DNA from: Psammoneis japonica
Taxonomy: Eukaryota
Assembly (NCBI GenBank): GCA_008632985.1
Contig: QPGO01000010.1
Coordinates: 496,001-560,000 of the forward strand
DNA length: 64,000 nucleotides
Direction: 5' to 3'
Part shown: positions 1 to 50,029 of the stretch, one piece after another
Layout: each line of letters opens with the position of its first letter
Numbering within the stretch: position 1 is the first letter of the stretch
Notes under the pieces: generated by a model
Told to the model about the DNA's origin: nothing
Database searches by the model: none
What the model saw: only the letters and a program-made list of their open reading frames with translations
Program-made: the position numbers and the translations under genes

Positions 1-269
1 TTCTTTCGGGGGCTACTGATCGTGTCCTGCTGTGAGTTCTCTATTGACATTGCTTCTCTCGCCCTAGCTGTCGATAGAACTTGATCTAAATACCGCTGCC
101 ATTCGTTGAAGAAGAGTGACAATTGCGCTGGTTTCGTCACCTCCTTGTGCGCACGAAACTCGCTCTTGACATAGGCGTCGCCGAGTTGTCGCATTTCTGG
201 AGGCAAATGCTTGGCATGAGCTCGTAGCAACGATCGATACAGTGATAACACTTCTGTGCGTCCCTTCAT
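1..269 (-). CDS. SDHAF3: Succinate dehydrogenase assembly factor 3 (ACN9/LYR-motif protein), 3' end runs off the window
   Basis: Manual translation from ATG at 269: MKGRTEVLSLYRSLLRAHAKHLPPEMRQLGDAYVKSEFRAHK...; LYR..LRAH..LP..MR.LGD.YVK.EFR.HK is the ACN9/SDHAF3 signature. No stop before position 1, which explains its absence from the ORF track. Confidence 0.88.
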   Translation of the reverse strand, partial: MKGRTEVLSLYRSLLRAHAKHLPPEMRQLGDAYVKSEFRAHKEVTKPAQLSLFFNEWQRYLDQVLSTARAREAMSIENSQQDTISSPRK

Positions 270-470
270 TTCCGCCTGTTGCGTCGGTGTCGGGCGCCTG
301 ACTCAATGCTTAGAGAGAACGCCGCCATTGGCCATTTGGCGGAAAGCTAAAAGCTAATTACAAAGGATGTTTGTTTGTCTGAAGAATTGGCGTCTGCAGT
401 GTGGCCAGCTTCCTTGGCCGGTGGGAATAGAGCAGAGGGCACCACTGGATAGAGTGAAGCTCTTTGGACT

Positions 471-790
471 GTTGTTTCAACACCTGCCTGTTGAGTGTTT
501 TGTTGCATCCGGGAGATGGACGCCGGCTCTCTCAATGCCCACCAATGTGGGTGACCGATGGCTTCAACACTCTGTTTTTGAGTGTGTGCACAGGGAGACA
601 GACCATTTCAATGTCTCTCAAACATGCACCCCGGTGGGTGGATGGTTTCAACACCCATCCCCCCCCCCCCTCCCCCAGGAGGACGTGGGGATGGCTTCAA
701 ACCCTGTTGCGTGCACATGCCAGGGGATCAGTGGTTTTTCAACACATGTGTCAAACATGTGCCCCAGGGGACAGACAGCTTCAGCACCTG
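471..790 (+). repeat. Degenerate ~40-45 bp minisatellite, core GGAYRGYTTCAACACC (cluster 1)
   Basis: Core copies near 471, 558, 640, 690, 731, 775. Confidence 0.7.
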
Positions 791-949
791 CACTGAGTGT
801 GTGTGTTGAACCAACAAGACAATGTTGCCAAAAGGGAACCCTTTGAGGTTTCCTGTGCCACTCGTCACACTTGTCCTGGTTGCTCCTGTGGTCTGCGGCA
901 GCCATGGTTTGCCTGGAAGTCCTTGACAAACTTCAATCTTGCAGTGCAA

Positions 950-2430
950 AAGCTGCCTGCTGACACCACAGTGCAATTTGTGCAAACCAGATGATTCACT
1001 CCAAAGAGTGAGAAAAAAAAGGTTGGTGAGATTGGCGATGAATGCACACTCGCTGGTCCGGTGTTGCCAAATCCACCATGTCAGGATCCAAAGCATCTTC
1101 TCTTCAACATTTCCACTTCTGGGTTTTTTGCATTTCCTGCTCATTCTAGATGCTCCAACAACACACTCCTTCCACTTGGGTCAATGTTCAGAACACTTGT
1201 TCATGACACACAGGGGAAGGCCCCTCAGGCATCCACACACAGTGGGTCTGCTGGCCCAATCTTCTTGAAAGTTGCTGTTGCGATTCACATTGGAACATTG
1301 CCAGTTGGCATGTCACTCTTCATTGGCAAAATCCAACATCTCATTGAGTGCATCCATTGTGCCTTGTGTGCACTCCATGAACTTGCCAATGCAGGCACAG
1401 CAATTCTGCTCCACCAAGTTCATCATGTGAGGACCAACCAACCACCAGCTCATGATCTCCAACCATTGACCACTTCAGGATCTGACACAAAGAACCCCAT
1501 GCTGTGACAAGCCCACTTGTCCGGGGTCTTGCCTTGTTGATGTTGCAATCAACAACAGTGCTGGCTTCAGCATGCAGAAGTCAAGTCCATTCTTGTCTCA
1601 CACCTTTCGCAATGGACCTTGCCACACTCATCATCTCTCAGACTGTGCATCATGAGCGGGCCACAAACCCCCTCATCATCCATGCCATGTGCAGGACAGC
1701 TGATCATTGGCATGTCCGTCAGTGCTGCAAGAACATCTTGTCTGTCCAGTGTGAGTTGAAGATTCCCATTCCTGGATCTGGCAATTTGTTGGTCCTTCAA
1801 ATTTCTCTCGGGCCTCCCATGTGCCATTGTCAATTTCAGCAACATGTCTTGCCCTGCAACTCAGCATCAAAGCCAATCATTTGCCAGTGCTCGCTGTTCT
1901 TGTGCACATTCATTCTGTGCAGCTCAGCATCTTCTGTCACCATGCTCCCATCAGCATGTGTGGAGAACATCAGTGCTGTGGCAGTGGACACACACTTTGG
2001 CTGACTCAGTGTCCAATTTTTCACAGTGTCATCATGCAACTTTTTCATGGTGCTTTGTCCTGGCTTCTGCAATTCTGTCCATGTTGGTTCAAGTGTCTCA
2101 ATCTCCACATGTTCCACATTGGGGCCAATCATGTCATTCCTTTCATCTGAGTTGATCATCAATTGGCGCAAATTCACAGTGTCCTGTTGCAAGTGTGTGT
2201 CGACAGTCAGCAATGTCCTGTTGCTCATGAGCCATTGCATGAGTTCTTCTCTTGCATGTGGAAACTGCACTCCTGTCATCACCTTCCTGCTCTGTTGTGG
2301 GATGATGTCCAGCCCACTCATCACCTCGGTCACATGTTGTTCCAGCATGGAATGGTCCAAACTGTTGAACCATGTCTCACAATCACTTGGCCATTTCAAT
2401 GTGATCAGCTCAAATGTTGCCCATTTGCAA
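950..2430 (-). pseudogene. Decayed protein-coding sequence of unknown family
   Basis: Chained minus-strand frames (ORFs 1836-2399 and 1567-1845, plus a frame through ~1500-1000) read as natural protein if C/H are reverted to Y and TGA to CGA, e.g. LVEQNCCACIGKFMECTQG, RPTVCGCLRGLPLCVMNKCSEH. Confidence 0.45.
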
Positions 2431-2562
2431 TGACAATGTTCTCATCTACATTCATTGCTTGTTGACACAACCAACATGATGTGCACTGCTCTCAAGGCTC
2501 CTGTCCTTGCATCACATTCACACTGAGCATTGAAACTTTCATGGATCTTTCACCCACATGCA

Positions 2563-5500
2563 TCAGAACTCTCGTGCTTTTGTTTGACAGCCCACAGTGG
2601 CATGTTTAAACTTTTGGAACTTCTTGCCCTGTGATGGCTTTGTCATGAAGTCTCCCAGCATGTTGTTGATGGGACAATGCTGTGCTTGTAAGTTGCTCTT
2701 CTTGATCTGATTGTCAACAAGAAGTGTCAAACATTGAGTGCTCGTGACTGCTTGCCAGCACTCTTGTGTGCCCATCAGTTTCCAGCATGATGGCACTCTT
2801 GCTGTCCTGGTGCAAGACATTGTTGTCAATTGGATGCCCTTGGTGCTCCATGAACAGCTTCATCCACAGTGTCATGGTCATGGCATCATTGACTCCAACA
2901 AGCTCAGCTTCTGTGCTGCTGCGGGTGTTGAGCTTCCTGGTGCTTTGAGATGGCCTTCACTGCTCCTTTGCCAGCTGTCACAACTCCTCCTGTGTGGCTC
3001 TTGAAATCTGGATGTGCTGCAAAAAACAATGCACCCACATGCCACTTGATGACTTGGAGGTCCATCACACCTCACACTTGATGCAGCAGCAGTGACTTTG
3101 TTTCTTGTCTGGTGGCTCACATGCTTGAGACAATGGACCAGCTTCTCCCAATCCTTGTTGGTGGGAGCTCTGGCTTGCATGCATGATGTGGCAGATGTGT
3201 GTCCATTTGGCCTCTCTTGGACAGGAGCAGTCCCTTGGCCACCCATGTGCGGAAGGTCTGAGCCTTCATGTCTGACAATCTTGTGCTGTCGGAGTCAGAT
3301 GTCTGCTCTCTGTCTGCTGGTGTCACAGCAAAATCCACACTCGTCAACTTTTCCAGAATTTTGATTGATCATCTTGCAAGCACAGTCTGCCATGTTGACT
3401 TTCACTTTGCCCTTCTGGCTGAAGTCCTGGGTCACACCAAGACAGTCATGTCTCTTCCCCTGCACAGCAATGACTTCACCATGGCTGCCATGCTGCATCT
3501 TGTTTAGCCAGCTCAGGAACTTGTCATTTGCTTTTAGGTCATTGTGGCTCAACAACCAGTCATCCACATGGAACCAAATCATGCGCTGCTTGCGGTTGAC
3601 TGTTTGACTGGCATTGCATGGATTGCATGGGTTGAACTTAAAGCCTGTCTTTTTCAAGTCTTTCCAAATTGATTGTGCTGCAGCAGAGCAGCGGTCAGCA
3701 TGCCGGAGATGGCTCTGATGAGTCAGATGCAGAGGACTCTCTTGCCTTTCTCTGGGACCACACCATGAGGTCCGCATGGGGTTGGATTGATGCTCACTGG
3801 CATGTCCACCAGCACTCCTGCAATCTTCATCACAATCCTGTCTTTGCCTTCTCCAGGCTCTGGCATCATTGTCTGCACAAATGCACACGGAACATCGGTG
3901 CTCATTTCATTGCAGCTTTCATGGGCATCAACAATCACCATCATCAATGTCCCCTCAAGGGATGAAGTGGGGCTGGCTGACTCATCTTTGTCTGGTCATT
4001 TTTGGGTTGGGTTGTCATTGCAGACCATTCACCCTTTTGTGCAGCCATCTCATTTTTTGGTGAGGAACATCAAGGCTGCCATGGGCTTGGTCCTTTCAGC
4101 CAGAGTCATGTTCTTGGCTGATGCTGGTGCAAAGCACACTTGGTCATGCAACTTCTGCTTGATTTCTTTCTCTGAGGCATTGCGCCCCTTCTGGCCAAAT
4201 GCTTTGAGGCCTTTGTGGAGCAAATGTTGTTGGGCAAAACATGCACCCTCTCCACTTTGGAGTCGGTCATCAATCTCACATGAAGTGTGCAAGCAACATT
4301 GCTGTCTCCACTTTGTGCACAATGTTGCCCTTTGGTGCTTGAGCTTGTGTTGCTCCCTTGCCACTTTTCTGGCTTCTGCCACTCCTGCAAATCAAACTTT
4401 GTTCTTGTCTTTGTGTCCATGTGACTTCACCTTGAATGGTGCTTCACTTCTTGTGACTCTGCTTGGCGCAGCTCTTGTTTCTTCCTCCAATCATTTGCAA
4501 CCCCCATCTTGTGTCTTCCTGGGGTTCTTCATCTTGTTTGGACTCTTCACTCTCACAGTGTTCATCATCATCTGGGTCTTCTTCTACCTTGTGCTCTTCT
4601 TGAGCTTTGTGCTGTTGATTGGGGCTGGACCTTTCATTGGCTGACACATCATCAGCTTCTTCATGTTCATCATCTGAGTCAGGTGTGTGTCTTTGCAGTC
4701 TTCAACTTCTGACTTGGTTGGTGGTGCAGTTTTATCATCATTTTTGCTTCCTTTGCTTTCATCATCCCTGTTGCTGTCGCTTTTATTTTTGTCATTGTTT
4801 GCTCCTGCAGTCCAATCAGCATCACGCAAATTGTCTCTGTGCTTTCCTGTGAACTTGAATTCCTTGATGCCTTGTTGGATGGCCACATCCCTGACAGCTG
4901 TGACATGTGTGTTGGTCAAGGATGTGGAGGTGCACACTTGCAGGGATTCAACAGCTTGCCCATGTGCAGGTTCATGGCACAGTGTCCACCCCTGGGCAAA
5001 TTAAAATGTGGTCACAGGCAAATGCTGTCAATGCTGCACACTTCCATGGGGTTTGTCTTGTTGTTTGTGATGTGGGAAATGACAAGTTTCCCAAACTTGA
5101 GCTGGACATGTTTGTTGCAGCCAAGGTTTCTTTGTTGCACAGCAGTGTGCTGTGGACTGCAAGTGTCAGAGTGAAATCCTTTCTTTTTGCAGGTGCACAT
5201 TCAACATGACAGGAGTGTTCTTGATCATGGCTTGCTTGCACATCAACTCAGGTGTCATCTTGTGTGGCATGTGATGTGCAGTGGCTCTGGTTTGCTCCTT
5301 GATGGTCTGAGTGCTTTGCTCATTTTTGGGAAGATGGTCCTTGGCATTCGTGGATGCAAGTTCTAGATTCATGCCATCAGCAACTTCTGCCAGCATGTCT
5401 TTGAACTCAGGATCACACCCAATGAAGTCAATCTTAAATGAGGCCATGTTGCGCTGTCAGAGAATCATGTCCAAGGCTTTGCAAATGTGTTTGTGCTTCT

Positions 5501-7350
5501 TGGACTTTCACCTCACACTTGATTGATGCTTGATTCTTGTCTTGTCAACTGCACGGGCATCTTGACACTGCATGCTTCCACAATGTCAATGCAGAGGGCA
5601 GAGGGCTGCACCTTCTTTCTGCTTGTTGTAGATTTCAGGTGGAGCTGCAACAGTGATGTTCCTCTTGCAGGAATGGTGTGCATGCTTGGTCTTGTCTTTC
5701 AGTGTGTTCATGTCACCACATCCTGGCACAGTGCAGTCTCCATCCAAAGTGTCCACTCCTGCATTGGTGGACAGAGATCAATCTTGTTCCTTGCCAGTTC
5801 TTGCACTTTGTGCACCAGTTTCTGGCTTGCTGTCATGATGCTGAGGGCAGAACCATCATCAAGGATGATCTCATCTGACTTGATGCCAACATTGGCTGGG
5901 ATCAACCTCATCTCTGGCCTGTCTTTGGCCTGTTCAACTGCTTGGAACCCATGCCACAAAATGTTTCTCTTGCTCTTGCTGGAGTGTGATGACTGACTTG
6001 ACCTGTGGGTGTCTGTGCCAGCATTGATGCTGCTCACTGACAAAGTCTGACAGTCTTCTTTTCTCATCTGTGCATGACTCTGTCCCCTGGTGTCAAGTTT
6101 CCTCCCTGCTGGTGTTCTTGCACCAGTCTTTCTGTGGGATCTCATCCTCACATTTGCAGTGTGAGGACTTGTGGTTTGCTCACCACAGCAATGGCACACC
6201 ACAGCACCATGTTTGCCACTCTGGGCATGCTGACTTTGGTCTTGCAGGTTCTTGGACTTGTCATTGGTCTCATCTCCATTCTTGTCTCTGGGACAACCAT
6301 CATGCTTCTTGCTGCATTGCTTGCATGGATTGATGTCTCCCTTGGGTGGTTCAGCAACACATCCAGCATTGCCTTCTTGAGAGTCTTTGGGTGTGAGTCA
6401 CTTCCTGGGTTGCAATCTCTCATGAGGCTCCTCTCTTGAGGTTCTTGTGGAAATGGTCATCACTGTTTTCCACTGACATGCATGCAGTCCATGTCTTGCA
6501 TGCAGCATCTTTCAGCGCCTGCTGCACTGCTTTTGTTTCTGCCACTGTGCCAGTGCAGTCCTTGCACTCCTTGGCATTCTTGACAAAACCATCCAGCATC
6601 CCACTGTGGAGAACATTGCTTGCAGCATCTCATTGATTCTTAAATCTTGACAGGCAGTCATTCAGAGTGACTGGTTCTTTGTTGTTGCACATCCAGCACA
6701 TGCTTCAGAGACTTGGCAAGTGCACGGAATGGGTGTCAACCTCTCATGGAGTCAAATGTCAGTGACTGGATCAGCTTCAACAGCTCAATCAGGTCATCTC
6801 TGATTTTCTCACAACTGGGTTCAGCTGGCACTCTCTGATTCACAAGCTTGGCAAAGCAATCATCCAGGATCACTGAAAATGCAGCAGTCTTGTTTTCCTC
6901 AAGCTTCCTCACTTTCTCATTGCAGCAGTGAAATGCAGCCTTGTGCTGATGTTCCAGCTCTTTTTCTTCTTGTGATCTTTTGTCTGCCATCTCCTGGTGG
7001 TCTGAGGCATCTGCCTTTGGCATTGCCATCTTTGGTGAGCCCAGAGTGAGTTTCACATCATCAGATCTCTTGTGCTTCATGATGTCCGTTGACCTTGCCT
7101 CAGGTGAACACCCTGCTTGACCACATTTCTTTTGCACGTGGTTGATGACATTCATCTTGACATCCTTGCATGTTGCATTCCATGAGTCAATGTTCATCAA
7201 TGATGGACAAAACTTCATCTCTGGCTTCTTAAACCTCTTCTTTGGGCCAGTCTTCTTGTTCTTGTTGTAGGAAAACTTTTGGCCTCTGCCACCTCTGCCT
7301 TGGTCATGTCCTCAGCCTTCACCACTCATCCCACCTCCTCCTCTGCCACT
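2563..7350 (-). mobile_element. Ty1/Copia LTR retrotransposon internal region (gag-PR-IN-RT-RNaseH), degenerate; no LTR pair recognised
   Basis: Minus-strand order: gag (ORF 6736-7218), zinc knuckle CHCCG (~6190), protease IILDDGS (~5860), integrase CDPEF...PKNEQSTQTIKE (~5300-5420), RT STDVPCAFVQT, FNPCNPC, WFHVDD, KRHDCLG, RNase H end HCPINNMLGDFMTKPSQGKKF. Integrase upstream of RT is the Copia order. Many stops and frameshifts. Confidence 0.9.
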
Positions 7351-7439
7351 CACAATGCAGCTTTCCTGTGTCAGATGATCAAATGGAGGTTGGCACCACA
7401 TGCACCAAACACAGTGCTTCTGACTCATTTATGCACTCT

Positions 7440-7520
7440 GGGAGAAGGGCAGCTTCAACACCTGTTCAATGCACACCCCATGGGACAGATGGTTTCAAAC
7501 TCATCAAATGCACACCCCAG
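7440..7520 (+). repeat. Minisatellite cluster 2 (same TTCAACACC core)
   Basis: ggcagcttcaacacct (~7449) and gatggtttcaaactc (~7488), each followed by a TGCACACCCC-like tail. Confidence 0.55.
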
Positions 7521-9100
7521 CATCTGCAGCATGTTTTGCTCTTGATGAGAAGATCAGTTGACAAGAAAAAAATTTGCACCTGTGGCTGCATTCTCCACAC
7601 AAGCATTGCAATTTTTCAAGAATTGACCAACAAGGTGGTCATGGCAACTGCAACTCTGAACAATGTTTTGATGCTGCTTCATTTTGAGTCACAAATCTGG
7701 AGTTGCCAAAGCCATCATTTAGGCTGACACAGTCAATTTTTCCAACAACAGTGGTCACAGGTTTGCAGTGTTTTTGTCATTTGTGGTGCAGTGATGCCTC
7801 ATTCAGAGCTGACCCATTTGTTTGGGAGAGCTTCAATTTGATTGCCCACTGCATGTTGCATGTTTTTCAGTGCTCCTGCCATGTTTGTCTCTTTGTTGCA
7901 TCCTGCACTGCACAACTCAGCCACCAATCTGGTGTTGTTTGCATGACACCAATGGCACACCCCTTTTGCGACCCAATGTGTCCCCTCATCACATGTTTGA
8001 CAACAATGAGAAAAGGCTCTCCTTTCAATGTGAATGTCTCATTGAACCAACCCCCTGTTCACAGACAATGCCATTACAAGCTTGAGTCCTTTCCTTCTGC
8101 CCAATGTCAATTTGCACTCCAGAGCCCAACTCACAATGTCAACCAATCACTGCAATGTTTGTGCCATCATTTGATCCTGGTCATCATGCTCATGCTTCCT
8201 GTTGCCACAATGCTCATCAACCAGAATTTGACTTTGTTTCACACCATCACAATTTGACAAATTCCAACATCAACCCAGATTGCAGTGTGGATCAATCTGC
8301 ACTTCATTCAGCACCACTTTGTGAAGCTGTTGACAGACAACAAACAATGCTGCAAAACCTTTTTGGGGTGCCAAGTCATCAGGGCCAACATGGCTGCAAT
8401 TTGATTTTGTGGATTGTTGTGGTCTGTGTTTTGCACACTGTTTTAGCTGCTGTGGCAGTTCATTTCTGCTGGCCAGCACCAAATCATGTTCTCTGTCTGT
8501 GCATGTCTTCCTTCTTTCTCTGTGAATGCAGCAGTTCTCATCTCTTGAAGAAGATTGCACAGGGTCATTTGGATGCCTTGTTGGAGAGAAAGATGAGCAT
8601 TCTCCGTGCACCCAACTCCAGGACCCAGACTGCATGGGTGGCAGTTGCAAGCACCAAGGCTTTGGTGACAGAAAACTCATTTGACATGTTGAGACTTTGT
8701 GCATGGGTCTTCATCATCAACCAGATTGGCCACAAAGACTTCTCACTTGCTGACTCCTCACAGCAGGAAAGCTTGACAAGGCTGCAAGCCTCCACAAAAT
8801 GTGCATGGCATGCAACCAATGAAGCTCAGGGCCAACCCCACATTTCTGACTCACATCCCAACCAATCCTCTTGCTAGATCCATTCTTGCTTGAACTTGAG
8901 ATCAGGATGAAATGGCTTGCCCATGCATCACAGTTCTTCATCACTTCCAACAAAGAGAAACATGTTTAAAAAATGCTGCCACAAACTTCTCCATTCTCCT
9001 CAAGATGTTTTGCAGTCTCTGGCATTCCCCATGCATTTCTTTTGGAAGTTTTGTGCACCTGCTGCCACTCAGCAATCAAACCTTTGAACTGGTCACTCTG
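7500..9100 (-). pseudogene. Decayed protein-coding sequence of unknown family
   Basis: One minus-strand frame over 8280-7500 (IWVDVGICQIVMV*NKVKFWLMS...TGGWFNETFTLKGEPFLIVVKHVMRG...) is interrupted almost only by TGA, as expected from CGA->TGA decay. Confidence 0.4.
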
Positions 9101-9119
9101 GCGGAGTTTAGAAATTCGA

Positions 9120-10460
9120 GTCTGGCTTGCTGCTGTTGTTGGGGACAAGGCAAGATGGGGCCACAGTGCCACAAGATCAACCTTGCAATGCTCAACCACA
9201 GTTCTTAAAGTCTCTCTCCTGGGGCCCACCAGATGCTGCCAGCACCCTCATCCTGCAGTTGTCAGGTTTGGTGGCACTGTCATGGTGGGGTCCTTTCACT
9301 CCAGAGTTCTCAGGAAAGTCAAGTCTCTGTTGCTGCAGGGAGAAAGGTCACATGGGGCCACAACACCACAAGATCAACCTTGCAATGCTCAACCACACTT
9401 CTTGGAGTCTCACCCAGGGCCCACCAGACACCACCAGTGTCCTCAACTTGCTGTTGTCAGGTTTGTCAGCACTCCCCCTGCCATGGGGTCTTTTCACTCT
9501 GGAGCTGTGAAAGTGTCACATCTGCTGCTGTGGGGGAAATGTGACATGTGGCCACAAAACCACAAGATGATCAACCTTTCAATGCCCAACCCAACTTCAG
9601 CTTGCTGTTTTCAGGTTTGTTGGTGCCATCATGGGGTCCTTTCACTCTAGAGTTTGAAAACTCAAGTCTGCTGCTGTTGGGAACAAGGTGACATGGGGCC
9701 ACAATGCCACCAGATCAAACCCCAGCAATGCTCAGCCACAGTTCTTGGTCACATCTTGGGTCTGCCAGACACCACCAATGCCCTCAGCTTGCTGTTGAAA
9801 TTGGGTCACAACTCCACAAGATCAACCTTGCAATGCTCAACCACAGCTCTCAAAGTGTCACCTGGGGTCTGCCAGAGACCACAAACACTCTCAGCTTGCA
9901 GTTGTCAGGTTGGTTTGCACCATCATGGATCCTTTCACTCTGGAGTTGGGAAGTTCAAGTTTGCTTCTGTTGCAAACAAGTTGACATGGGGCCACAAGAA
10001 CGCCACAAGATCAACCCTGTCAACAACCAACAAGAGTTCTCAAAATGTCACCTGGGGGGTCTGCCAGATGCTGCCATTGTCCTCAACTTGCAACTGTTGG
10101 GTTGGTTGGTGCCACCATGTGACCCTTTCACTGTAGAGTTGGGAAGTTCAAGCACACAAAACAGGCCTTGCACTGCTCAACCATGGTTGCTGCAGAGTCA
10201 CCTGGGGTTCACAAGAGACCAGAAGTTTGATGTGTGCTTCTGGCAGATGGGACACAACAGGGTGCCACAAATGCTCAACACTGGTCTCACACACTTGCTC
10301 AGTTCAAACCACTGTTCTCAAAGTGTTGCCTGGGGTCTGCCAGAGACCACACCAGTGCCCTCAGCCTGCTGTTGCTTGTTGGGTTGGTTGGTGCCATTGT
10401 GGGGCCTCTTCACTCTGAAGTTGGTGGGAAGCTCAAGCCAGCACCAACTTGCTGGAGACA
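9120..10460 (+). repeat. Degenerate tandem repeat, ~8 units of 100-195 bp
   Basis: Anchor CACAAGATCAACCTTGCAATGCTCAACCAC-like at ~9171, 9368, 9562, 9711, 9816, 10005, 10155 (weaker ~10300), usually followed by CCTGGGG...CCAGA and CCTTTCACTC. Confidence 0.85.
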
Positions 10461-12199
10461 AGGTGACACAAGGGAGTCACACAACAGCCATGACCACATT
10501 GGCACACAGGCAACTGCTTGTTGAGCAGGAGAAGCATTGGCAGGAATTGACACAGCTGCAGTGCTCCATGTCTGTGGGGGCTGCTGCTCTGGCCCTTTGC
10601 TGGCTGGTGCACATTTGGCATGGTGGTGGCTGTGCTGACCCAGTCAAACTCTTGCTTGACCAGCTCCCTGTCTGTGACCACCTGCATGACCAACTCCACA
10701 AACCTTGTCTTGACCCAATGCCTGCAAGGGACAAAAGTTGTTGTGCATGTGCAGATCAGCAGCAAAGATCAGCTGTGCAGCAGCAAACTGCATGGTCTGA
10801 CACAAATGTGTGAAAATTTCATTCTTGACAAGGGCTGATTGAGGTTACAAAAATTGAGACATCAATCTTCTTTGAAAACAAATGTGCAGCGCATCTGGTT
10901 GAAACAATGTCTCAACATCTGACTGCCAAACAAATGAGAGCTCACAAGCAAAACACATCAGCAATGAAGACCAATGTAAAATGACTCATGCAAAAGTTGA
11001 TTCAACCAATTTAAAACTTCAAAAACAAGTGCAACAAAAGGATTTCTAAAAAAATGAGACTGCATGCAAAATGATGCAGGCAATGAGATTGCCAGGCACC
11101 AGCTGGCTTGGCTTGTGGCAAAAAGAGGCGCATCGCTGCCACACAAAACAACAAAAAAAGCACAGGATGCACCCAAGCATCCCACAAACAATGACAACAT
11201 TGCAAGAGGGCACCAACAAAGCCCATGACTCTGGACACACCAACACAAAGAAAGGCCATGGGGAAGGCAAGAGATTGGAAGTGCAGCACGGGAGCAGGCA
11301 GCTTGCAGCAAACAAAACAAACTGATGCTTCCCCTTGCACTTTTTTTGTTTCTTGAAACTCAGACAAGTTGACAAAAATGGCCAAGGACAAGAAGCAAAG
11401 TGCTGCAATGTCACACACAGGTGGGCAGAAACAACAGCATTGTGCCATGCTTGACAAAGAAAATGCACCAAACTGACAACTTCTTTGCTGTCTTCTGCCA
11501 GGGATTGCTCCAATGTGTCTCACAATGAAAAGCCGTCACAAAAACTGACTCTCTTTGAAGCACCGACAAATGAAACATGATGTGTTGCCAGTGCAGCCAA
11601 GAACACCAACAAGATGTGAGACAGACTGTTGTGAGAGGAGACAGTGGGGGAGACAGACAATGGGGCGGCAGCTTGAAGCACAAAAGGAGCAAAGGCAGCA
11701 GAATGAAGGGTGGAACAAGAGCATGCACCAAACATCAATCATTGCCAGGGTGGAAAGAAAATGATGTCATGGTTTGCTGGAAACCAAAACTGCAAAGTGC
11801 GCAGCACCAATTGACAAATGAATGAATCAAATTGTTGGTGTGTTCCAGCCGTCAATGAACAACAACACAATTGATGAGATTGACTTGGGTGCATGTGCAC
11901 AGAAATGAACCATGCATGTTTCATTCATTGTCATTTTCCACTCCACTGGCTTGGCCAACAATCAACACTCCAACACCCACAGTCGTTGCACTGTGGTTGA
12001 CTTTAAAATGAATCTTGTCAAAAGCCCAGCATGCACTGTTTGGAGACCACCAAATTTCCTTTAGCCTGGTTTCCCACTTTGCTGATTTGGTCAATTGTCA
12101 AATCAATTTGTTTGTGATCAGCTTGGTCAGAACACAGGCTTCTTGTCAAGCAAGCTTTAACCGCAAACAAGAGCAATCACATTTTCCAGATGAGGGGAT

Positions 12200-13090
12200 G
12201 GTGACAAGCCTGGCAGTGCCACTGAGTTGCTGCCCATCCTTTTTCCACTGGAGCATCTCCAAAGTGAGGAGCTTGAGTCTCCAATGACAGCAAATGAATT
12301 GGAGGTCATTTGCCAAGGGGGAATGAGCACAGAACAGTCAGTCATTTGAGGAGTTGCACATGTTTGGCAATGCTTGGGTGACTCCAGCCACACCAAGATC
12401 ACTGAGGCCAGAAGAGAGCACCCCTGAAAGGGTCTTTAAACCCTGAACAACATGCACAGAACAAACATCAGAGGAGCAGCAATCTTGAGGGTGCTCAGGC
12501 AGCTGTGCCAAGACTGAGGCCAAACAGAAAGCACTGAGCTGGTCGGATGGTTGTAACACCCATTGAACCTGCATCCCGGGGGGAGGGGGTTGGACAGTTT
12601 CAACACCTGCCAAACATTCATCCCAGGGGTTGGATGGTTTCAACACCTCCTGTCAAACGTGCACACGGTTTCAACACCTGTGAAACTTGCATCCTGGGGG
12701 ATGGACATTTTTACACCTGTTAAACTTGCATCCCAGGGGAGGGTGACAAGCCTGACAGTGCCATTGAACTGTCCATGCTTCTTCTGCCAGAGTGTCTCCA
12801 ACAAGGAGCTGGAGACTCCAATGGCAGTGAATGGGTTGGAAGCTGTTCGCCGAGGGCAATGGGCACAAACCAATCATCTGAGGAGCCGCATGTGCTTGAA
12901 AATGCTTGAGCACTTCTTGCAATGCCAAGACTGAGGCCAAACAGAGAACAACTTTAAATCCCGAACAATGAGCACAGAACAATCAGTGCTGTAGAGGAGT
13001 CGCATGCTTGAAAATGCTTGAGTGGCAATGCCAAGACTGAGGTCAAACAGAGAGCACCAAAATCGGACTATAAATCCCGAGCAATAGACT
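12200..13090 (+). repeat. Local duplication plus ~110 bp repeats
   Basis: GTGACAAGCCTG... block at ~12201 and ~12743; CCAAGA...CTGAGG-type units at ~12393, 12507, 12924, 13030. Confidence 0.75.
12541..12745 (+). repeat. Minisatellite cluster 3 (GGATGGTTTCAACACC core)
   Basis: Five core copies near 12545, 12592, 12632, 12664, 12703; same orientation as cluster 1. Confidence 0.75.
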
Positions 13091-13301
13091 AGACCAGATC
13101 AGATTTAAGAAATAACGTTGTAGCATGACAGATGAAACACCAACAAATGCATTCCACCTGCATCGTCGCATGAAACTGCCCGGCATACTTCATTGCTAGA
13201 GCCAGGATCGCAGACAATGGCTATCATTCCTTCCAAATCTTCTCCATCACATAAATCTCTAACCACAGTCTTCTTTATACTCAATCAATGGAATATGGTA
13301 C

Positions 13302-13988
13302 TCAGGAGGAAAATACCGACATGTCGTTGTCTCGAAGCATACAGACTGATGCGTAAATGCCAACGATGGGAAAGAAGAACCACAACGAGTTGGCGAATCC
13401 TACAAAGCCCCAGGTTTCAATAGGCTTCCTTCCTTGATATCTTCGATTAAACACAAACGACAGAATGTATATGATTGTTCCGTACATGACTTGCCAAAAG
13501 TAACAAAGACCAACGCATCCAACCAAAAGTGGAGAAGCTGAGAAAATAATCGCATAGTTCCACAAGATCCCCGGCGGAATTGTGGACCAACCATTGCCGA
13601 CATCGATAAAGAACCCAAAAGATTCATGGTTCTGGTAAGAAGGATCGTATAGGGCATAAGTCGACCACATTTTACCCCAAGTTCTACCGTCAAACAGCGT
13701 AGAAAGTGAGAGCGGAAGGGTCAAGTAACTCAAACATGCTTCCCATTCACGACCCTTGTATTCTTCTTTCAGTTTCTTGTAGTCGTCCTTGATGAACATT
13801 ATGTGGTTTCCAAGCGCAATTTCACACAATGCAATGAGGATGTTGAGATTGTTGAAGAACAACAGCGAAGCACCGACTGCGTTAGGTCTCGTGGCACAGA
13901 GACTTAAACAACCACCGGTGGTGCCGACGAGCCAGAAAATTATGGCTGTCATAACGTTCAGCCCAGGCAGTCCCTCTTCCTTTCTCAT
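13302..13988 (-). CDS. Multi-pass membrane protein, EXPERA/EBP-like
   Basis: Intronless ORF from MRKEEGLPG; several TM helices; W..YALYDPSY and N.LW..FP motifs resemble EXPERA (sterol isomerase-like) proteins. Confidence 0.6.
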   Translation of the reverse strand: MRKEEGLPGLNVMTAIIFWLVGTTGGCLSLCATRPNAVGASLLFFNNLNILIALCEIALGNHIMFIKDDYKKLKEEYKGREWEACLSYLTLPLSLSTLFDGRTWGKMWSTYALYDPSYQNHESFGFFIDVGNGWSTIPPGILWNYAIIFSASPLLVGCVGLCYFWQVMYGTIIYILSFVFNRRYQGRKPIETWGFVGFANSLWFFFPIVGIYASVCMLRDNDMSVFSS

Positions 13989-14494
13989 CGTCGAGACAAG
14001 AAGTTTGATTGCCACCAATGCTTATCGGCAACGTAGTTTCAAGTTGACTTGTCAGTGGGAAGTAGCAAATGCCGAAGAAGTGAGAAAGTGGAAAGAGACA
14101 ATCGCATCGCATGTCGCATGCGTCGGCATTGGTCGTTGTGTTCTTGTGTCTGTCTCCTGTGTGTGCTTGCAACCGAACCGAAGAGCCGCGACAGCTACAA
14201 ACTCCATGCGACGGAACAGACAGTCCATGCCTTTAGCTGGATGGACCAAACTGGAAACCTTTGAATGACGAGAGAGTAGGAGGAGGTGTCTGATGTACTA
14301 CGCGTTGAGGGATGCTTCATGGCGAACGCGGGGCTCGTCTAATAGTTTATTCTAATATAGTAAGCAGTTAGTACCGCATTCAAATTATGGTAACTAATAG
14401 ACTTTTATAAGAGGCAAGAGTGGAAGATGAGATAATGTGCGACAGATATCGTCGTCACTGGAATGAATTATTTGTCTTTCTAGCTTTTGAAAGC

Positions 14495-15752
14495 TTAGAG
14501 AGATGACATGCCCATAAGTACACGAAGCTGCTCGAAGATAACGAGCTGCACAGTCGTGGTTGGTGCGAATCGTGACCAAATAGGCATGAAACCACGCCAC
14601 AATGTGGTTGGTCCCTCATTCTTGACAATCTTCATAAAGCAGTCAAGAGCATTGTTGTAAATCTTTGCGTCCGCAGGTTGGTTCATGAGACGCGTCCTGA
14701 TCATGTCAAACGGTGCCACTGTGCACGTCATGAAGAAACCGGCTGTCACAGCCGACAGGAACTGAGTACCGAGGTGGTTCTTGGGCAATCCAGTAGCAGT
14801 CACAACGTAACCCTTGGCTTGATCGTACACTGCCATCTTTGTTCCGTTAAGAACCATTGCGCGAGCAATGTTAGAGTCGATACCACGGTAGAAACCACCA
14901 ATACCCTGGTTGGCAAGAAGTTCCTTGGCAGTGCCGGTGATTGATGGCACACCCTTCCCTTCGCTTGTCATCATCTTGGTCTTGAGCACATCGAAGGGGT
15001 TACCAGCCAGAGAACCAAGAGCACCAGCGGCACTACCGGCAGCAAACTTCTTAAGAAAGGTAGTCGATGCCGGGTCTGTGCACCCAAAGGCAACCTTGCA
15101 TGGCTCGTACAAACCGAGACGAAGCGATGTGTACGATGCTTCGCGAAGCCAGGCGGCATTTACACCCTTCCACAGAGCGAAAACACCCTCACCACTCACA
15201 ACCTTCTTCACTGTACCGCCCATTCCAAGCTTGCCGTATTCTGTAGAAATCTGGATACGAGTCTGTCGGAGAAAAAGAGAGAAGGACGAACAAAATAATC
15301 TTAGCAATTCAGCAAACGGGAAACCCAATTTCAGTTGTCGCTTTGAACAGTTTGTAATGATTTCGCCTTGGCATTCCTCTCAATGGCATAATTGTTCGTC
15401 GTCGCCTCGTGTGTTGGAGACATAGGCAATGACTGTCGCTCCTTTTTTGAATGTAAAAAGTCAACCTCAATTTCTCTGTGATATGTGGTAGCTCAGTCTG
15501 ACCAATGTAAACCTGCCTTTCATTTTTACTTGCAATCACTCCCACGACTCCTCCAACTAGAAATCGTCTTCAAAATTCCAAAAGCGGTAAAACACGATGG
15601 GTGATACATACCTTGACGACATCGATGGGATGGATAAAAGTGACGGTGATAACAGCAGCAGTTCCGGCCATACCGACTTGTTGAAGCAAGCTGGGACCGG
15701 CATCCGAAGTGGCCAAGAGCGGACTCTGTTTTGCAGGCGAAGAGAGACTCAT
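14495..15752 (-). CDS. Mitochondrial carrier (SLC25; UCP/dicarboxylate-oxoglutarate type), 2 exons: 15752-15612, 15262-14495 (~302 aa)
   Basis: Three PxDxxK/R motifs (PIDVVKTR across the intron, PFDVLKTK, PFDMIRTR); GT-AG intron 15611-15263 preserves frame. Confidence 0.93.
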
Positions 15753-16262
15753 GGTGTTGGTAACGTAGTCGGTATTTTGTGGGTGGCCTGTGGTTTGATG
15801 GCAATAACTGGCGAAGACGACAACACGTACTTCGCCGCGTTCGATCGCAACGTCGCACAACCAAAATGTGAAGGTGCGGATGTGGAACGCTTTATTCCTG
15901 ACGTCATAGCAACCCACGTGTGCCTGACGTCATATATCTAAATTAAATGTCTGTTTATAAGTATGCACGTGTTGTGTGATTGTGCCCGTTTGGCGTCGTT
16001 CCCGCTCTTGGGAGCATCCTGTCCTTGCGTCGACATGAAACTGAAAACGCGTCTGTGCTTGGAGATGAGATCAGATATCAGATAAATAGAACCCAAGCAG
16101 CGAGAGAAGCAGAAGCAAGAAAGAGGAAAGAGGAAAGTGGGAGGGTCATGATTCATGAAATGACAGCATGACAGGGGTGAAAGACGCCGCGCCGCTGCTG
16201 TAAACTCTATAAGGCTCAACAACGCCCACTCATACATAGAAGGCCCACTGGACAGAGTATCC

Positions 16263-18121
16263 ATGATGACGCCCCACACTCCCACTTCCATACCTTCCAA
16301 AAGATCTGCTTCCGAAGAAGACGAAGTGTCAAAACCACTGTTCATTCGCAATCCGAATACGAACGATGTGCTCTTCGGGCGTGGCATACCGTGTCGAGAG
16401 CACAGTGGTTCTAAACAGTACCATGAAATATGCAAGCTATTCAGAGAAGAGTACAGATCAACGTCCAGTCGAGAGGCGAAGAACATCATTTCATACAAAA
16501 TTATTAACGCAATTGGTTCACTAGTTCCACCGGGAAGGTTTCTGCAGTTGATACCGAGGGAAGAAGCGAAGACGAAGGGAATATTCAAAAGCTGTCACGG
16601 CCATTTCAGTATCTGGGAGGAAATGGACAGTATCAGTGCTCTCACCAAAGTGAAGCAATCGCTTCGTGATATCTCTCGACAACGTGACCACTCGAGTTTC
16701 GCAACGCGTCCTATGACTATCACGTCTGTCGTCTCTAGTGCTGGTCATATTGGAAATCTTAACAGGCCCGTGCCAGTTACCTCCAATGTATCCATCCGCT
16801 CTTCACAAACTAACGAATGTAACAGCGATCAACTGGGTCAAACTGGAGAACGCGCTAACTCCCTGCAAGTGCAAACACGCATATCAAATTCTGAGAATGA
16901 GACATCGAACGCCTCTGGTACTGTAGATCGTTCGTCGATGGAAATCGAGAGACAGGATGATGAAGATGAAACAGCGGAAGATATATGGAAGGCAATGGCT
17001 ATGGATGATGCACCGAAAATTACGGAAGAAGAAATCAAGAGCGAGAAGGAATCACTAACGGAGGTAGAACGAATGTCAGTACTTCAAGATTTGTTTGGCA
17101 AATCCCTGAACATCAGTGCTCCTGCGAAGAAACGATTGAAACGATCTGACCCGGGCTCCATCACTAGTCTTTTGCTAGAAATGAGAGAGGCAATCGATCT
17201 GTTTCCTAAAGACGAGAAGTCAGCCGTTTTGGACGCCAGAACAAAGGCCGACGCGAGCGAGTTCAGCGACGATCGGCTAAAACAATTTCTTCTTCGAGAG
17301 GACATGGATCCTCAGGTACATCATTGTTATTTCTGTCGTCCTACTGCTTTGCTGCAATCCCATCTCACGGCCTTTCCTATCATTCCGCAGAAAGCTGCGC
17401 AGCGTTTTGTGACTTATTGGTCGGAGCGACGCCAGTTGTTTGGTCCAGAAAAATATTTAATGAACATGACGTTAGATGGAGCATTACGAGATGATTTGCC
17501 TACCCTCAAGGCTTGCATATTTTGTTATCTCCCTCGTCGTGATTCTTCGGGAAGGAGTTTGATCTTTATGGAGCAGTCTCGTCGGAACCCTGGTAAGCAC
17601 ACGCTGGATAGCATGGTGAGTATATCTGTACCTGCCGAGTTCTTGCGCTTAAGAACTTGGTTCAAAACTTACCTTCATTCCTTTTTTGTAAGCTACGAGC
17701 GTATTGGTATGTTCTTGAGACAGTTGTTAGGGTGAACACTGGAAAGGAAGCTGATTTCGTTGTCTTGACCAATGAGAAGAACTTGACAATCTGGGATTAT
17801 GATCAAAGGTTGCAGAAGCGTATATTAGAAATGGAGAACAGCATTTTTCCTGTTCGTCTGAAAGCCGTTCATGCATGCTTCATACCGAGGATTACACAGC
17901 TGCTGCTTAAGCCTATCTTATTTGCCGCCCTGAGCAAGAGAGAACGGCAGCGAATTGTCCTTCACGATGCAACAGAGAGCGAACTTCCGGAGGTGCTGGC
18001 AAGAGATTTTGGACTTCTCAGAGACATGCTGCCAACGGAAATGGGCGGAACAGTCAAGCTATGTGAGTGGATTGTAAGACAAGAAGCACTCGAATCAGAA
18101 GGCTCTGAGGAATGGCTTTAG
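16263..18121 (+). CDS. DUF6824-like N-terminal domain + CRAL-TRIO-like C-terminal domain protein, copy 1 (exons 16263-17315, 17391-17615, 17693-18121)
   Basis: NDVLFGRG...GRFL...KVKQSLRD is the diatom-expanded DUF6824 pattern; AA.RFV.YW..R..LFG, RD..GR, PVRLKAVH and LPTEMGG are CRAL-TRIO/Sec14-like. GT-AG introns are at the same positions in all three copies. Confidence 0.8.
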
Positions 18122-18204
18122 GCATCGAGGGCTTGGTCATGCGTCACGCCCCATCGAAAGAAAGGTTGCATCTTCTTTCGTTCTCCCAGCACCTGGTATA
18201 TTCG

Positions 18205-18385
18205 GATGACTTACCCAAGTTTCACAGAAGAAGAAATCAAGAGCGAGAAGGAATCACTGACAGAGGTAGGGCAAATGTCAACACTTCAGGATTTGTTAGG
18301 ATAATCCCTGGATCTCAGTGCTCCTCCGAAGAAACGCTAAAACGACCTGCCCCGAGTTCCATCGCCAGTTGTTTGCAAGAAATGA
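18205..18385 (+). pseudogene. Short degenerate fragment of the tandem gene family
   Basis: Aligns by eye to ~17005-17185 (gaagaagaaatcaagagcgagaaggaatcact...), with stops and indels. Confidence 0.75.
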
Positions 18386-18527
18386 ACGATGGAATTGGCA
18401 TGCTCTAGAAAAGCCTTTACTCTGCCGTTCAGTGGACTGGTAGTCCACTGGCACACTGATGATGCTCCTACCACCTCTTCCTATCTTTTGATGTCACTCG
18501 CGCATCTGCTTTAAGTGCTCGAGCTCA

Positions 18528-18823
18528 TCTCTCTCTCTCTCTCTCTCTCTCTCGCTGGAGGGAGTACAGCCAGTTAGTAGCTACGTACTGTATTAGAGAC
18601 TACCGTAGAGAGAGAGAGAGAAACTGGCCAGAGTAGAGGTGGCGGGTGTACGACTAGCTCTCTACTAATAGTATGTACTACAGTAGAGTGTAGAAGGCCC
18701 ACTTCATTCGTAAACTAGCAGCCCGCCCTTTGCTTGGTAGCCTACCTTTTTTAATTTCTTTTCACCCCTCGTGGCCGGCTCTAAGCTACCGGTAGAGCTA
18801 GAGAGAGCTACGGTATGGATAGC

Positions 18824-18855
<32 letters not shown>

Positions 18856-18990
18856 ATCTAGTAGTAGATATCTACTCTCTACTCTCTAATAGAGAGCTAG
18901 CTAGAGTACATAGTACTGTAGTAGCTACCGGTAGAGAGCTCTTAGCGTATGGATAGCGTTATTAGGAGTAGGGCCTAGTTAGTTGCCCGT
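18528..18990. repeat. TA-saturated low-complexity island with (CT)n, (AG)n and (CTAT)n
   Basis: (CT)~13 at 18528-18553, (AG)~7 at 18607-18621, (CTAT)~7 at 18825-18855, two copies of AGCTACCGGTAGAG (~18784, ~18923). Confidence 0.8.
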
Positions 18991-19280
18991 ACGGCCTACA
19001 AGTATGTCCGTTTGTCCTTTATTTCCTCGCATCACGCACGCATTCTGAATTCATCCAATGACGACGACTCATCACAACGACGCACTTTTCATTTCTTGCG
19101 CGCGTGTCTGACAATCGATCAACAGTCATCATCAGCCTCCGGTTTTCTGTGAGAAGTGAGAACAACCAAGAAGAGGGAAAGTGCAAAAGACGCACCTTGT
19201 GCTGACTACCGTAACGCGACGACAGGCGAACAATAAAGACGACAGCAGGCAGCAGGCACAATAAGCGGCATCGATACAAC

Positions 19281-21173
19281 ATGACAATGATACAACACAC
19301 TCCGACCAAACGAGTCGCAAGAGTGGTATCTGAAGATGACGAAGGAGGGGTGAAACTCCAGGTCATTCGAAAGCTGAATAAGAACGATGTGCTCTTTGGG
19401 CGTGGCACCCGTTTTCGAGAGCACAGTGGTTCGAAGCAGTTTCGTGAAATTTGCCAGTTATTCATAGAAGAGTATTCCTCAACTACCAATCGAGAGACCA
19501 AGAATATTGTCTCATACAAAATCATTAATGCAATTGGTGCTCTAGATCCTCCGGGAAGGTTTCTGCAAATTGTCTCGGAGAAAGAGGCGAAGAAGAAAGG
19601 GCTTGTTCATAGCAACGGCGATTGCGACAACATCTGGCAGGAAATGAGCAGCAGCAGTGCTCTGAGAAAAGTGAAGCAATCGCTTCGTGATATCACTCGA
19701 CCTACGCATGCCAATGAACGAACAGATCTACAAACGACCTCCTCTGAGAACACCGTCGGTGTTGACCGCGAACGAAAGCCCGCTGAGTTGGAAAACTTGA
19801 GCTTGCCACAGTCAGTACATTTGATCAGCGCTGGTAGCTCTTCGGATACACAGTCTGATGCTGAAACGACGATAATTGCGGAGCTTGACCACGTTGGTCA
19901 CAAAAAAGAGGATCACAGTATTACGATGCCTCTGCAGACGCCTCTCAACTGTACAGGAGACGAGACATTGGGTCCTAGAGCTGCTGATCAATTGCTGGTG
20001 AAAAATGAAACCTCAAACGAATCTGATACAGCCGAAGACTTTTGGGAGGTAGCAGCGATGGAACACGTACCTAAATTTACGGAGGAGCAAGCTAAGAACG
20101 AAAGGGAATCTCTAACAGACGTCGAACGGGTTTCCATTCTCAGGGACTTGTTTGGGAAATTGGATGTCGGCTCCCCTGCTAAAAAGCGCGTGAAACGACC
20201 TGCACCGTGCTCAATAGACTCTCTTTTGAAAGAAATGCGAAATGAAATAGATCGTTTCCCTGCAGAAGAGAAGTCATCGGTTTTAGAAGCCGAATCAAAG
20301 GCAGACTCGAGTGAGTTCAGCGACGATCGCCTTAAACAGTTTCTCTTTCGAGAGGATATGGATCCTCAGGTATGTGCGGTTCCGCTGATGTCCTTCCACG
20401 CTTTTTTCAATGATCTCACGGCCTTCATCTTGCAATCCATATCCAAAAGCGAGCTGCGCAACGCTATGTGACTTACTGGTCGGAACGACGACGGTTGTTC
20501 GGTCCGGAGAAATATCTAATGAACATGACATTAGATGGAGCATTGCGCGATGATATTGTCACCCTCAAGGCTTGTATATTCACTTTCATCCCTCGTCGAG
20601 ATGCTTCAGGAAGGAGCCTTATCTACATGGAACAGTCTCGTCGAAATCCGGATGAACACACGCTAGATAGCGTGGTGAGTTTGCTTTTTGTCATCCCTTG
20701 CTTAGGAGTAATGATGAAATATTGCTCACCTGCTTGTCTCTCTTCCCTAGATGAGAGGTTATTGGTATGTGCTTGAAACAGTTACAAGAGAAAATTGGGG
20801 TAAAGAAGCTGTCTTTGTTGTGTTGAACTACGACAAGAACTTAACAATCTGGGACTATGATCAAAGAATGCAGCAGCGTGTACTAGAATTTGAACACAGC
20901 ATTTTTCCGGTCCGTCTCAAAGCGGTTCATACTTGCTATCTTCCGAGGATCGCATTGTTCATACTGAAGCCTGTTGTATATGCCGTCTTAGACAAGAGGG
21001 AACGGCAACGTTCCATCATTCACGATGCAACAGGCGACGAGCTCTGTGAGCTGTTGGCAAGAGACTATGGACTCTTCAAAGATATGTTGCCAACTGAAAT
21101 GGGTGGAACAGTCAAACTTCGCGAGTGGATTGCAAGACAGGAAGGAGTTGGATCAGAAGGATGCGAAAGCTGA
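19281..21173 (+). CDS. DUF6824-like + CRAL-TRIO-like protein, copy 2 (exons 19281-20369, 20450-20674, 20751-21173)
   Basis: Paralogous motifs and intron positions match copy 1. Confidence 0.8.
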
Positions 21174-49908: not shown

Positions 49909-50029
49909 CGTCGTGGGCCCAACCGTCTGTCGCATTCTGAGTTCGCAGGCTCGCAGGTCGCAGGCTCGCTGTCGCACAGAGCTGCTCACATTTTCGAGTG
50001 GAGAACGCCGCGCACCTCCTGGTTGATCG

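Follow-up and report, generated by a model that had tools for sequence, protein, structure and literature searches.

In the alga Bigelowiella natans, integrated giant-virus and virophage DNA has been reported to undergo a hypermutation that is restricted to the dinucleotide TpA (Mettrop et al., bioRxiv 10.64898/2026.01.13.699255). As set out in the main text of that preprint, A:T is changed to G:C only at TpA, the product is TpG or CpA depending on the strand, the targets are foreign or repeat DNA, and the outcome is long tracts in which TpA is scarce and CpA and TpG are abundant. The same features are seen in a 64 kb stretch of Psammoneis japonica DNA (contig QPGO01000010.1, positions 496,001 to 560,000; the whole stretch is called the window below), where four repeat domains have lost almost all of their TpA, written TA from here on. 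There are also differences, as the organism here is diatom-like, the targets in the window are transposon-like repeats and their erasure is nearly complete, with TA at ~0.03 of expectation versus 0.45 for the viral region of B. natans. On flanking bases the preprint's main text, supplementary tables apart, says nothing, and a literature search on diatoms, TpA and transposable elements gave no description of the process in diatoms among the matches listed. The dependence of TA survival on its flanks that we describe here is new information on a process described in one 2026 preprint on another alga. The account that we consider reasonably probable is that a TpA-specific A:T to G:C hypermutation acted on these repeats, and that the residual TA are mostly its slowest substrates under an additive flank rule that is read on each strand.

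To our knowledge no agent of TpA-erasing hypermutation is known. The footprints of AID/APOBEC and ADAR enzymes were identified by quantitative flank rules, and a flank rule for TA erasure can be compared with the in vitro preferences of candidate deaminases and may help to spot such erasure in other genomes. In ascomycete fungi, repeat-induced point mutation (RIP) is a dense transition mutation of repeats that is triggered by duplication and that converts CpA to TpA, and so makes TA. The natural tRNA target of the TadA/ADAT2 family, A34, always follows U33 as far as is known, which amounts to a built-in 5'-U/T rule. When acting on DNA, amphioxus BjADAT2 is described as using the adenine context GAA and as deaminating C best in TCG (PMC10354150). 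ADARs are described as accepting A and C besides U as the 5' neighbour (in the order U>A>C>G), with G preferred on the 3' side and U the worst or among the worst there (Bass 2024, PMC11019741), and DNA polymerase eta as mutating A:T pairs at WA (W, A or T), with TA a hotspot on both strands (PMC7884765).

The window was scored per kb for observed over expected TA, CG, CA and TG, with edges resolved at 250 bases. Four TA-erased domains alternate with ordinary gene DNA and their boundaries are sharp. Overall the domains have TA at 0.02-0.07 of expectation with CA and TG raised to ~2, versus ~0.5-0.6 for TA and ~1 for CG in the gene DNA between them. The domains, and a stretch of control DNA, are as follows (R, purine; Y, pyrimidine):

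D1, positions 460 to 12950: TA- and CG-erased repeat domain; 38 residual TA, no RTAY.
D2, positions 25218 to 26700: short TA-erased domain adjoining an N gap, with CG partly lost only; 4 residual TA (two TTAA, one CTAA, one GTAA).
D3, positions 28750 to 32450: young TA-erased domain, TA at 0.02-0.07 and CG at ~0.5 of expectation; 10 residual TA, no RTAY.
D4, positions 50000 to 63750: TA- and CG-erased, with repeat families in 2-3 copies; 34 residual TA (11 of them TTAA), no RTAY.
Control DNA, positions 13000 to 24700: unmutated and gene-bearing, TA at ~0.6 and CG at ~1 of expectation.

Within D1, TA per kb is at 0.02-0.06 and CG at 0.02-0.17 of expectation, and the borders at ~460 and ~12950 are sharp. 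Repeat copies in D1 and D4 are 70-78% identical, and those of D4 differ from each other by CA versus TG at identical sites. This sharp-edged confinement to repeats with spared neighbouring genes, found in all four domains and again at the metagenome locus L002 described below, is the behaviour of a B. natans-type process.

The TA sites that remain are a non-random selection. The sequence-only reading of this DNA had proposed from a tally of D1 by eye that YTAR survives and RTAY is gone, giving 24 YTAR, 8 YTAY, 5 GTAR and no RTAY among 37 sites; a full count over 460-12750 gives 24, 8, 6 and 0 of 38, one GTAR more. Specifically, the YTAR sites of D1 are TTAA (13), TTAG (6), CTAG (4) and CTAA (1), the YTAY sites are TTAT (3), TTAC (3) and CTAC (2), and the RTAR sites are all GTAR (GTAA 3, GTAG 3). 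When the four domains are pooled (31,426 bases) there are 86 TA, made up of 52 YTAR, 16 YTAY, 18 RTAR and no RTAY. A control of 30,553 unmutated bases of the same window has 1212 TA, 28% of which are RTAY, and when scaled to 86 TA it predicts 14.6 YTAR, 23.3 YTAY, 23.6 RTAR and 24.5 RTAY (chi-square p = 1.2e-26; chance of zero RTAY 3e-13). With a Markov background derived from the dinucleotides of the domains themselves, the predictions are 27.2, 22.8, 19.6 and 16.4, respectively (p = 5.8e-9; chance of zero RTAY 1.2e-8). The comparison of NTAN counts with a Markov background and with unmutated DNA that the sequence-only reading had called for thus confirms the flank bias, far beyond chance. 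The bias recurs separately in D1, D3 and D4, and RTAY is absent from D1 alone (0/38) and from D4 alone (0/34), for which the chances worked by hand from the Markov fraction are ~3e-4 and ~7e-4. Survival by flank, given as residual TA in the domains against TA in an equal length of control DNA, is:

TTAA: 27 against 48.
CTAA and TTAG: 19 against 101.
CTAG: 6 against 57 (~90% lost).
GTAA and TTAC: 16 against 165.
CTAC and GTAG: 9 against 188.
ATAA and TTAT: 6 against 165.
ATAG and CTAT: 3 against 143.
All four RTAY: 0 against 345.

An additive half-site model, in which the base preceding T on each strand determines the loss that this strand contributes, describes all of the ten symmetric classes well (deviance 6.8, 6 degrees of freedom, p = 0.34). 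With control-like ancestors the fitted loss rates by the base 5' of T are 3.08 for A, 2.14 for G, 1.19 for C and 0.32 for T, and with Markov-shaped ancestors the order is the same and the rates are flatter (A 2.74, G 1.77, C 1.36, T 0.75). Depletion that was uniform across flanks had been named as the outcome that would undo the proposed preference, and a uniform-rate model is rejected against a model with R and Y rates (p = 2e-24). The R/Y model is in turn rejected against the four-base model (p = 3e-7), indicating that the proposed grading into purine and pyrimidine flanks was too coarse and that the order is A>G>C>T. The idea of a strand-wise preference is right in outline, as the dependence on flanks is strong, RTAY is extinct, and the ranking of YTAR over half-sites (sites fast on one strand) over RTAY is the one that two independent strand contributions predict. 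What failed is the part that had YTAR hit from neither strand, since only 52 YTAR are left of the ~206 in control DNA and TTAA alone (27 versus 48) comes close to being spared.

The rule also reaches one base further out. At position -2, two bases upstream of TA, T makes up 64% of the survivor half-flanks versus 25-29% in three backgrounds (control TA sites, CA and TG sites of the domains, and any T in the domains), and this effect is seen separately in D1, D2, D3 and D4. For example, TT flank pairs number 60 where 11-17 are expected, TC pairs 30 where 9-13 are, and AA, AC and AG together 2 where ~28-36 are. The -2 base weighs about as much as the base next to TA, and among the 86 residual TA there is no flank signal at position -3 or beyond. 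The protected word is roughly TYTARA, with TTTAAA-like sites prominent. Note that the deficit of TTCA among the products exceeds what TA loss explains, which makes control-based ancestors unreliable at the resolution of position -2.

Taken as a mechanism, the four domains would be repeats or transposon remains in which TA was rewritten to CA or TG, with ordinary CpG decay acting alongside. The speed of erasure would be read separately on each strand from the base that precedes T, being highest after A and falling through G and C to T, a T two bases upstream would slow it further, and the contributions of the two strands would add. RTAY would then be extinct because it is fast on both strands, half-sites would be ~95% lost, and TTAA and TYTARA-like sites would be the last to go. 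Most residual TA in the domains are accordingly taken to be survivors, that is, slow substrates.

D3 provides a view of this process in protein-coding sequence, through the following features:

P0001, positions 29037 to 31463, plus strand: open frame of 809 codons from a Crypton-like element, with a weak DUF3504 match.
Tyr196 codon TAC, with its TA at positions 29622 to 29623, plus strand: sole surviving conserved tyrosine codon, at a residue that is tyrosine in 81% of relatives.

D3 is young, as this frame of 809 codons remains open. At E<=0.001 there are 202 relatives of P0001; it was aligned with 58 of them, of which four tyrosine-poor rows were excluded and 54 used. P0001 contains 0.1% tyrosine (1/809), 3.3% cysteine and 4.2% histidine, versus averages read off the table of ~3.5%, 1.6% and 2.8%, respectively, for most relatives. 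At the 22 columns with at least 25% tyrosine, P0001 has five histidines, five cysteines, one tyrosine and 11 other residues. A G precedes eight of the ten histidine or cysteine codons that replace conserved tyrosines, so these eight codons were RTAY; the frame is thus uninformative on strand direction, as both models predict a 50:50 outcome for such sites and the outcome is five to five. The one conserved tyrosine codon that remains lies in the context tcTAca, which places a T two bases upstream on both strands, and the 81% tyrosine among relatives indicates that its TA is ancestral and thus a true survivor in a protective context. Open reading frames (ORFs) in erased domains lose tyrosine, to histidine or cysteine, without gaining stop codons, which may mislead annotation. 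Residue 514 of P0001 is a histidine (CAT) at the most conserved tyrosine column of the family (87% tyrosine), near an RH...S...Y consensus, and this column is possibly that of the catalytic tyrosine of the recombinase. As judged from its sequence, the D3 element is probably dead despite its open frame. Four of the 58 aligned relatives (P0021, P0044, P0063 and P0065) are tyrosine-poor (0-1.8%) and rich in cysteine and histidine, which suggests that TA erasure has struck this Crypton-like family in several sampled organisms.

A search of metagenome collections with P0001 itself found no relative. The tyrosine-free relative P0063 does occur in these collections, and a search with it returned 12 loci, among which are erased and unmutated forms of one element:

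L001, L002 (positions 1-3200): TA-erased Crypton-like element, TA at 0.03 and CG at ~0.5 of expectation.
L003, L004: same element with normal TA, ~80% identical in DNA to the erased copies.
L008-L010: third lineage of the same element, partly erased.

The erased tract of L002 stops at the end of the element and normal DNA lies beyond it. Two partly TA-poor stretches, in L005 and L011 (TA 0.12-0.14, CG normal), were excluded as possibly being ordinary genes. The unmutated L003/L004 and the mutated L001/L002 align over 2230 columns with 84% identity. Of the 95 TA in the unmutated copy, 40 are CA in the erased one, 34 are TG, 4 are still TA and 17 are other dinucleotides, so that 74 of the 95 became CA or TG. 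Other changes are rare, with CA or TG to TA at 3/345, AA to AG at 2/230 and TT to CT at 4/159; AA is thus left untouched. The pair shows directly, in another organism and in separate assemblies, that TA goes to CA or TG and that TA is strictly required. It therefore places the process outside the organism of the window and also supplies events of known polarity. The TA kept in the erased copy are 2/16 YTAR, 2/30 RTAR, 0/19 YTAY and 0/30 RTAY, and those kept in the partly erased lineage are 1/4 YTAR, 2/8 YTAY, 1/7 RTAR and 0/6 RTAY, which in small numbers is the class ordering of the window. As far as can be seen, RTAY was not rare originally, as it accounts for 30 of the 95 TA (32%) in the unmutated relative and for 28% in the window control. 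A second short stretch, in L009 at 4351-4900, has both TA (0.06) and CG (0.09) erased, as in D1 and D4.

The products in the window tell the same story in bulk. Losses of TA and CG and gains of CA and TG are 1394 and 1429 for half-sites, 478 and 514 for YxxR, and 628 and 851 for RxxY, for totals of 2500 and 2794 that agree within ~12%; along with the 74 of 95 in the metagenome pair, this indicates a B. natans-type change of TA to TG or CA and of almost nothing else. Which base of the TA changes is a separate matter, as the survivor pattern alone cannot separate RTA to RCA (equivalently TAY to TGY), which is what the sequence-only reading had proposed, from RTA to RTG. The products lean to the former by ~2:1. 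Specifically, on the assumption of control-like ancestors and symmetric CpG decay, half-sites gained 985 YTGY and RCAR versus 444 YCAY and RTGR, an asymmetry that each of the four domains shows, although the first half of D1 lacks it (137 versus 129). Strict paralogue pairs in the window show RTAR to RCAR five times and YTAY to YCAY once, alongside CG half-sites at 10 versus 8. In the metagenome element, where outcomes common to both erased lineages were counted once, 28 half-site events changed the T next to the purine versus 15 that did not (p = 0.066), and contests of a purine with a C flank went 17:3 (p = 0.003), a subset picked after seeing the data. A paired-comparison fit to these events gives strengths of 1 for A, 1.27 for G, 0.85 for T and 0.38 for C (p = 0.07), with a pyrimidine at 0.54 of a purine (p = 0.046). 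Our reading is that flanks mainly set the ease of attack, and there is modest support for a ~2:1 tendency of the T beside the purine to be the one that changes; the changed base would then be the T adjoining the purine flank, that is, the A before a pyrimidine on the other strand.

CpG was lost from the same domains by a process that can be told apart from TA loss, since CG is near gone in D1 and D4 (0.02-0.17 of expectation), is about half lost in D3, and is normal in 31750-32500. That last stretch has 2 TA in 750 bases, and 28250-28500 has 1 TA in 250 bases, also with a normal CG count, so TA erasure seems to extend beyond the Crypton-like frame into DNA without CpG decay. Decay of CG to TG or CA shows an even half-site outcome, being the 10 versus 8 of the paralogue pairs. 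In the metagenome pair C to T change at CpG is three to four times commoner at TCG (26/70 half-sites) than at other flanks (14/122), the individual values being 26/70 after T, 5/47 after A, 4/43 after C and 5/32 after G. Loss of CpG in the window follows A or T versus G or C flanks rather than T alone (rates of 1.01 for A, 1.13 for T, 0.65 for C and 0.48 for G), with ACG lost about as much as TCG. The sequence-only reading had suggested that some TTAA are newly made by double CpG decay, citing a TCGA at 63807 that aligns with a TTAA in a sister copy; this alignment is borne out (TTAA at 57625 to 57628, plus strand), while double CpG decay as a general source of TTAA fails because TA cannot arise from CpG decay alone.

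Several observations weigh against the account of surviving slow substrates, or against parts of it. The ancestors of D1 and D4 are not seen, so that control DNA or a Markov background had to stand in for them in the fit, and in the Markov version the rate for a T flank is a milder 0.75 rather than 0.32. In the metagenome element C, not T, is the most protective neighbour, and by a hand count T at -2 is not enriched among its eight survivors (3/16 half-flanks). As to the direction of change, the metagenome tests, at p values of 0.066 and 0.046, argue for it weakly; contests of a purine with a T flank stand at 11:12, and those of A with G go the wrong way (4:10). The rates fitted in the window predict metagenome outcomes below a coin flip (log-likelihood -67.1 or -59.4 versus -57.5), and looser flank matching makes the window TA pairs about even, on our reading. 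A three-copy family in D4 gives 20 TG and 19 CA at YxxY sites, a test of low power because its 58 discordant sites are mostly of TA-or-CG descent and copies c1 and c2 share ancestry. The sequence-only reading is therefore partly supported, with its strand-wise preference and RTAY extinction standing, its escape of YTAR set aside, and its RTA to RCA direction weakly favoured by product counts and disfavoured by the fitted-rate prediction, the D4 family and the looser matching. A further point is that a model of the opposite kind fits worse than survival without being crushed. In this alternative, which we regard as unlikely for the old domains, erasure was complete and blind to context, and present TA are new, made by C to T change at a C that follows a pyrimidine (YCA to YTA, by a dipyrimidine or ultraviolet-like bias or by TC-directed deamination). 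A creation-only model with weights of 1 for T, 0.44 for C and ~0 for A and G reproduces the zero RTAY and most of the classes; D1 and D4, with their 70-78% identical copies, are old enough to have gained new TA, and among the products TTCA falls short, its excess being 20 versus 210 for TTTG. The creation-only model has a deviance of 16.0 (p = 0.014), however, versus 6.8 for survival, and its counts are off for TTAT/ATAA (17.4 predicted, 6 seen) and for TTAA (18.4 predicted, 27 seen). Under this model the sister copies should have RTGR opposite RTAR, where five of five strict pairs have RCAR. In addition, the young D3 carries the same flank pattern and its Tyr196 TA is ancestral, the sister units at TTAA 9206 and TCTAGA 9648 carry both TG and CA, which is the mark of an old TA or CG, and new TA were rare in the metagenome pair (the 3/345 above). 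An equilibrium of creation with flank-dependent destruction fits similarly to creation alone (deviance 15.7, p = 0.016), with relative destruction of 31 for A, 8.6 for G, 3.5 for C and 1 for T. Reversion of TCA to TTA as the cause of TTA persistence was rejected for the metagenome pair, where CA to TA is 1/169.

Two other explanations do away with a mutational preference. That the pattern reflects the composition of the ancestral transposons, or selection for TA words such as TTTAAA-like signals, would suit the dominance of TTAA and TTTAAA-like words among the survivors (27/86) and the fact that the D1 and D4 ancestors cannot be seen. We hold this to be very unlikely, since the same bias is present in four unrelated domains, the survivors lie dispersed, at 0-4 per 250 bases, no domain can be recognized in the decayed D1 and D4, RTAY makes up 32% of TA in an unmutated relative of one mutated element and 28% in control DNA, and conserved tyrosine codons in RTAY context have all been lost. 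An artefact of assembly or base calling, in which modified bases of repeat DNA are misread, seems to us more improbable still. If a modified T or A were misread depending on the strand, random calls of CA or TG at a single site would indeed be expected, and the three listed sequencing runs are all from one sample, two of them contain the stretch, and they may be the assembly's own data. Nevertheless, word-based contigs from run X1, at depths of 34-60, match 25573-26561 and 30178-30649 without any difference, separate metagenome assemblies show TA to CA or TG with an unmutated sister, and the preprint reports 231 de novo TpA mutations in mutation-accumulation lines of B. natans. Read depth over D3 is 3-4 times that of the flanking genes. 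Other D3 copies differ by paired TG/CA swaps, and one of them keeps TAT where the window has TGT at 29802-29804; these swaps indicate independent events, but give no rate. A contig from run X2 skips two 95-base GT..AG stretches, at 39174-39270 and 39473-39569, which look like spliced introns, so that this run may contain RNA-derived sequence.

Returning to hypermutation with slow substrates surviving, its agent can be held against the systems introduced above. RIP resembles it in that repeated or mobile DNA is densely hit by transitions, within sharp boundaries and at preferred dinucleotides. Its chemistry is reversed, however, as TA is destroyed here (0.02-0.06 of expectation, with CA doubled), and the RIP signature is not found. 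Moreover, three tandem paralogous genes of the window (16164-23775) that are 73-76% identical at the DNA level have normal TA and CG; they were spared, in contrast to what RIP would do, which indicates that duplication at such identity does not trigger TA erasure. ADAR editing is similar in that adenine becomes a base read as G, in that it works best after U/T, and in that hyper-editing comes in clusters on both strands of a duplex (PMC11019741). The 5' T is near absolute here (the 2/230 for AA to AG), unlike the ADAR signature as described there, and the order on the 3' side, if that side counts, is T>C>G>A, roughly the opposite of the ADAR order, with a 3' purine being the slow class. Elements other than retroelements are also targeted here, as in the case of the Crypton-like D3. 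Crypton-type elements are DNA transposons. BjADAT2 belongs to a family of adenine deaminases that can act on DNA, and its reported TCG preference recalls the C to T change at CpG in the metagenome pair; it differs in its adenine context of GAA versus TA here, and CpG loss in the window has no clear TCG preference. Polymerase eta shares the targeting of TA. It should also target AA, going by its described WA motif, whereas AA in the domains is at ~0.94-1.74 of expectation, mostly above 1, and AA to AG is as rare as given above. None of the signatures that had been proposed for comparison (Pol eta, TadA/ADAT and others) matches. We infer an enzyme from the sharpness and the short range of the rule. 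Such an enzyme would recognize ~6 bp around TA and would most simply be a deaminase of adenine in DNA that strictly needs a T on the 5' side.

A bolder version, which we think quite improbable, is that a single DNA deaminase, directed at repeats and strictly dependent on a 5' T, converts both the A in T-A and the C in T-C-G. If so, TA erasure and part of CpG erasure would be two faces of one enzyme, and the hierarchy ATA>GTA>CTA>TTA together with the protective T at -2 would be its substrate footprint. Such a footprint could serve to recognize this defence in distant algae and could pick the enzyme out among TadA/ADAT2-like candidates.

Finally, in regards to the remaining content of the window, ORFs of D1 and D4 matched no Pfam family at the cut-off (12 ORFs, and separately 42 ORFs), nor did four ORFs, three of them among the 12, at a relaxed threshold. 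The word 'HVDD' in a D1 ORF at 3298-3906 is reverse-transcriptase-like by impression only. The motif GGYTTCAACAC occurs at 560, 644, 12636 and 12667, that is, twice near each end of D1 and in the same orientation (four matches versus 0.69 expected), which suggests a single long element, D1, whose termini are repeated. The genes that separate the domains have few introns and resemble those of a stramenopile alga, and going by their translations they may encode mitochondrial carrier-like, methionine aminopeptidase-like, aldehyde dehydrogenase-like and metacaspase-like proteins. In the control DNA, the microsatellites (TC)13 and (TCTA)9 at 18528-18860 bring local TA up to 1.19 of expectation.

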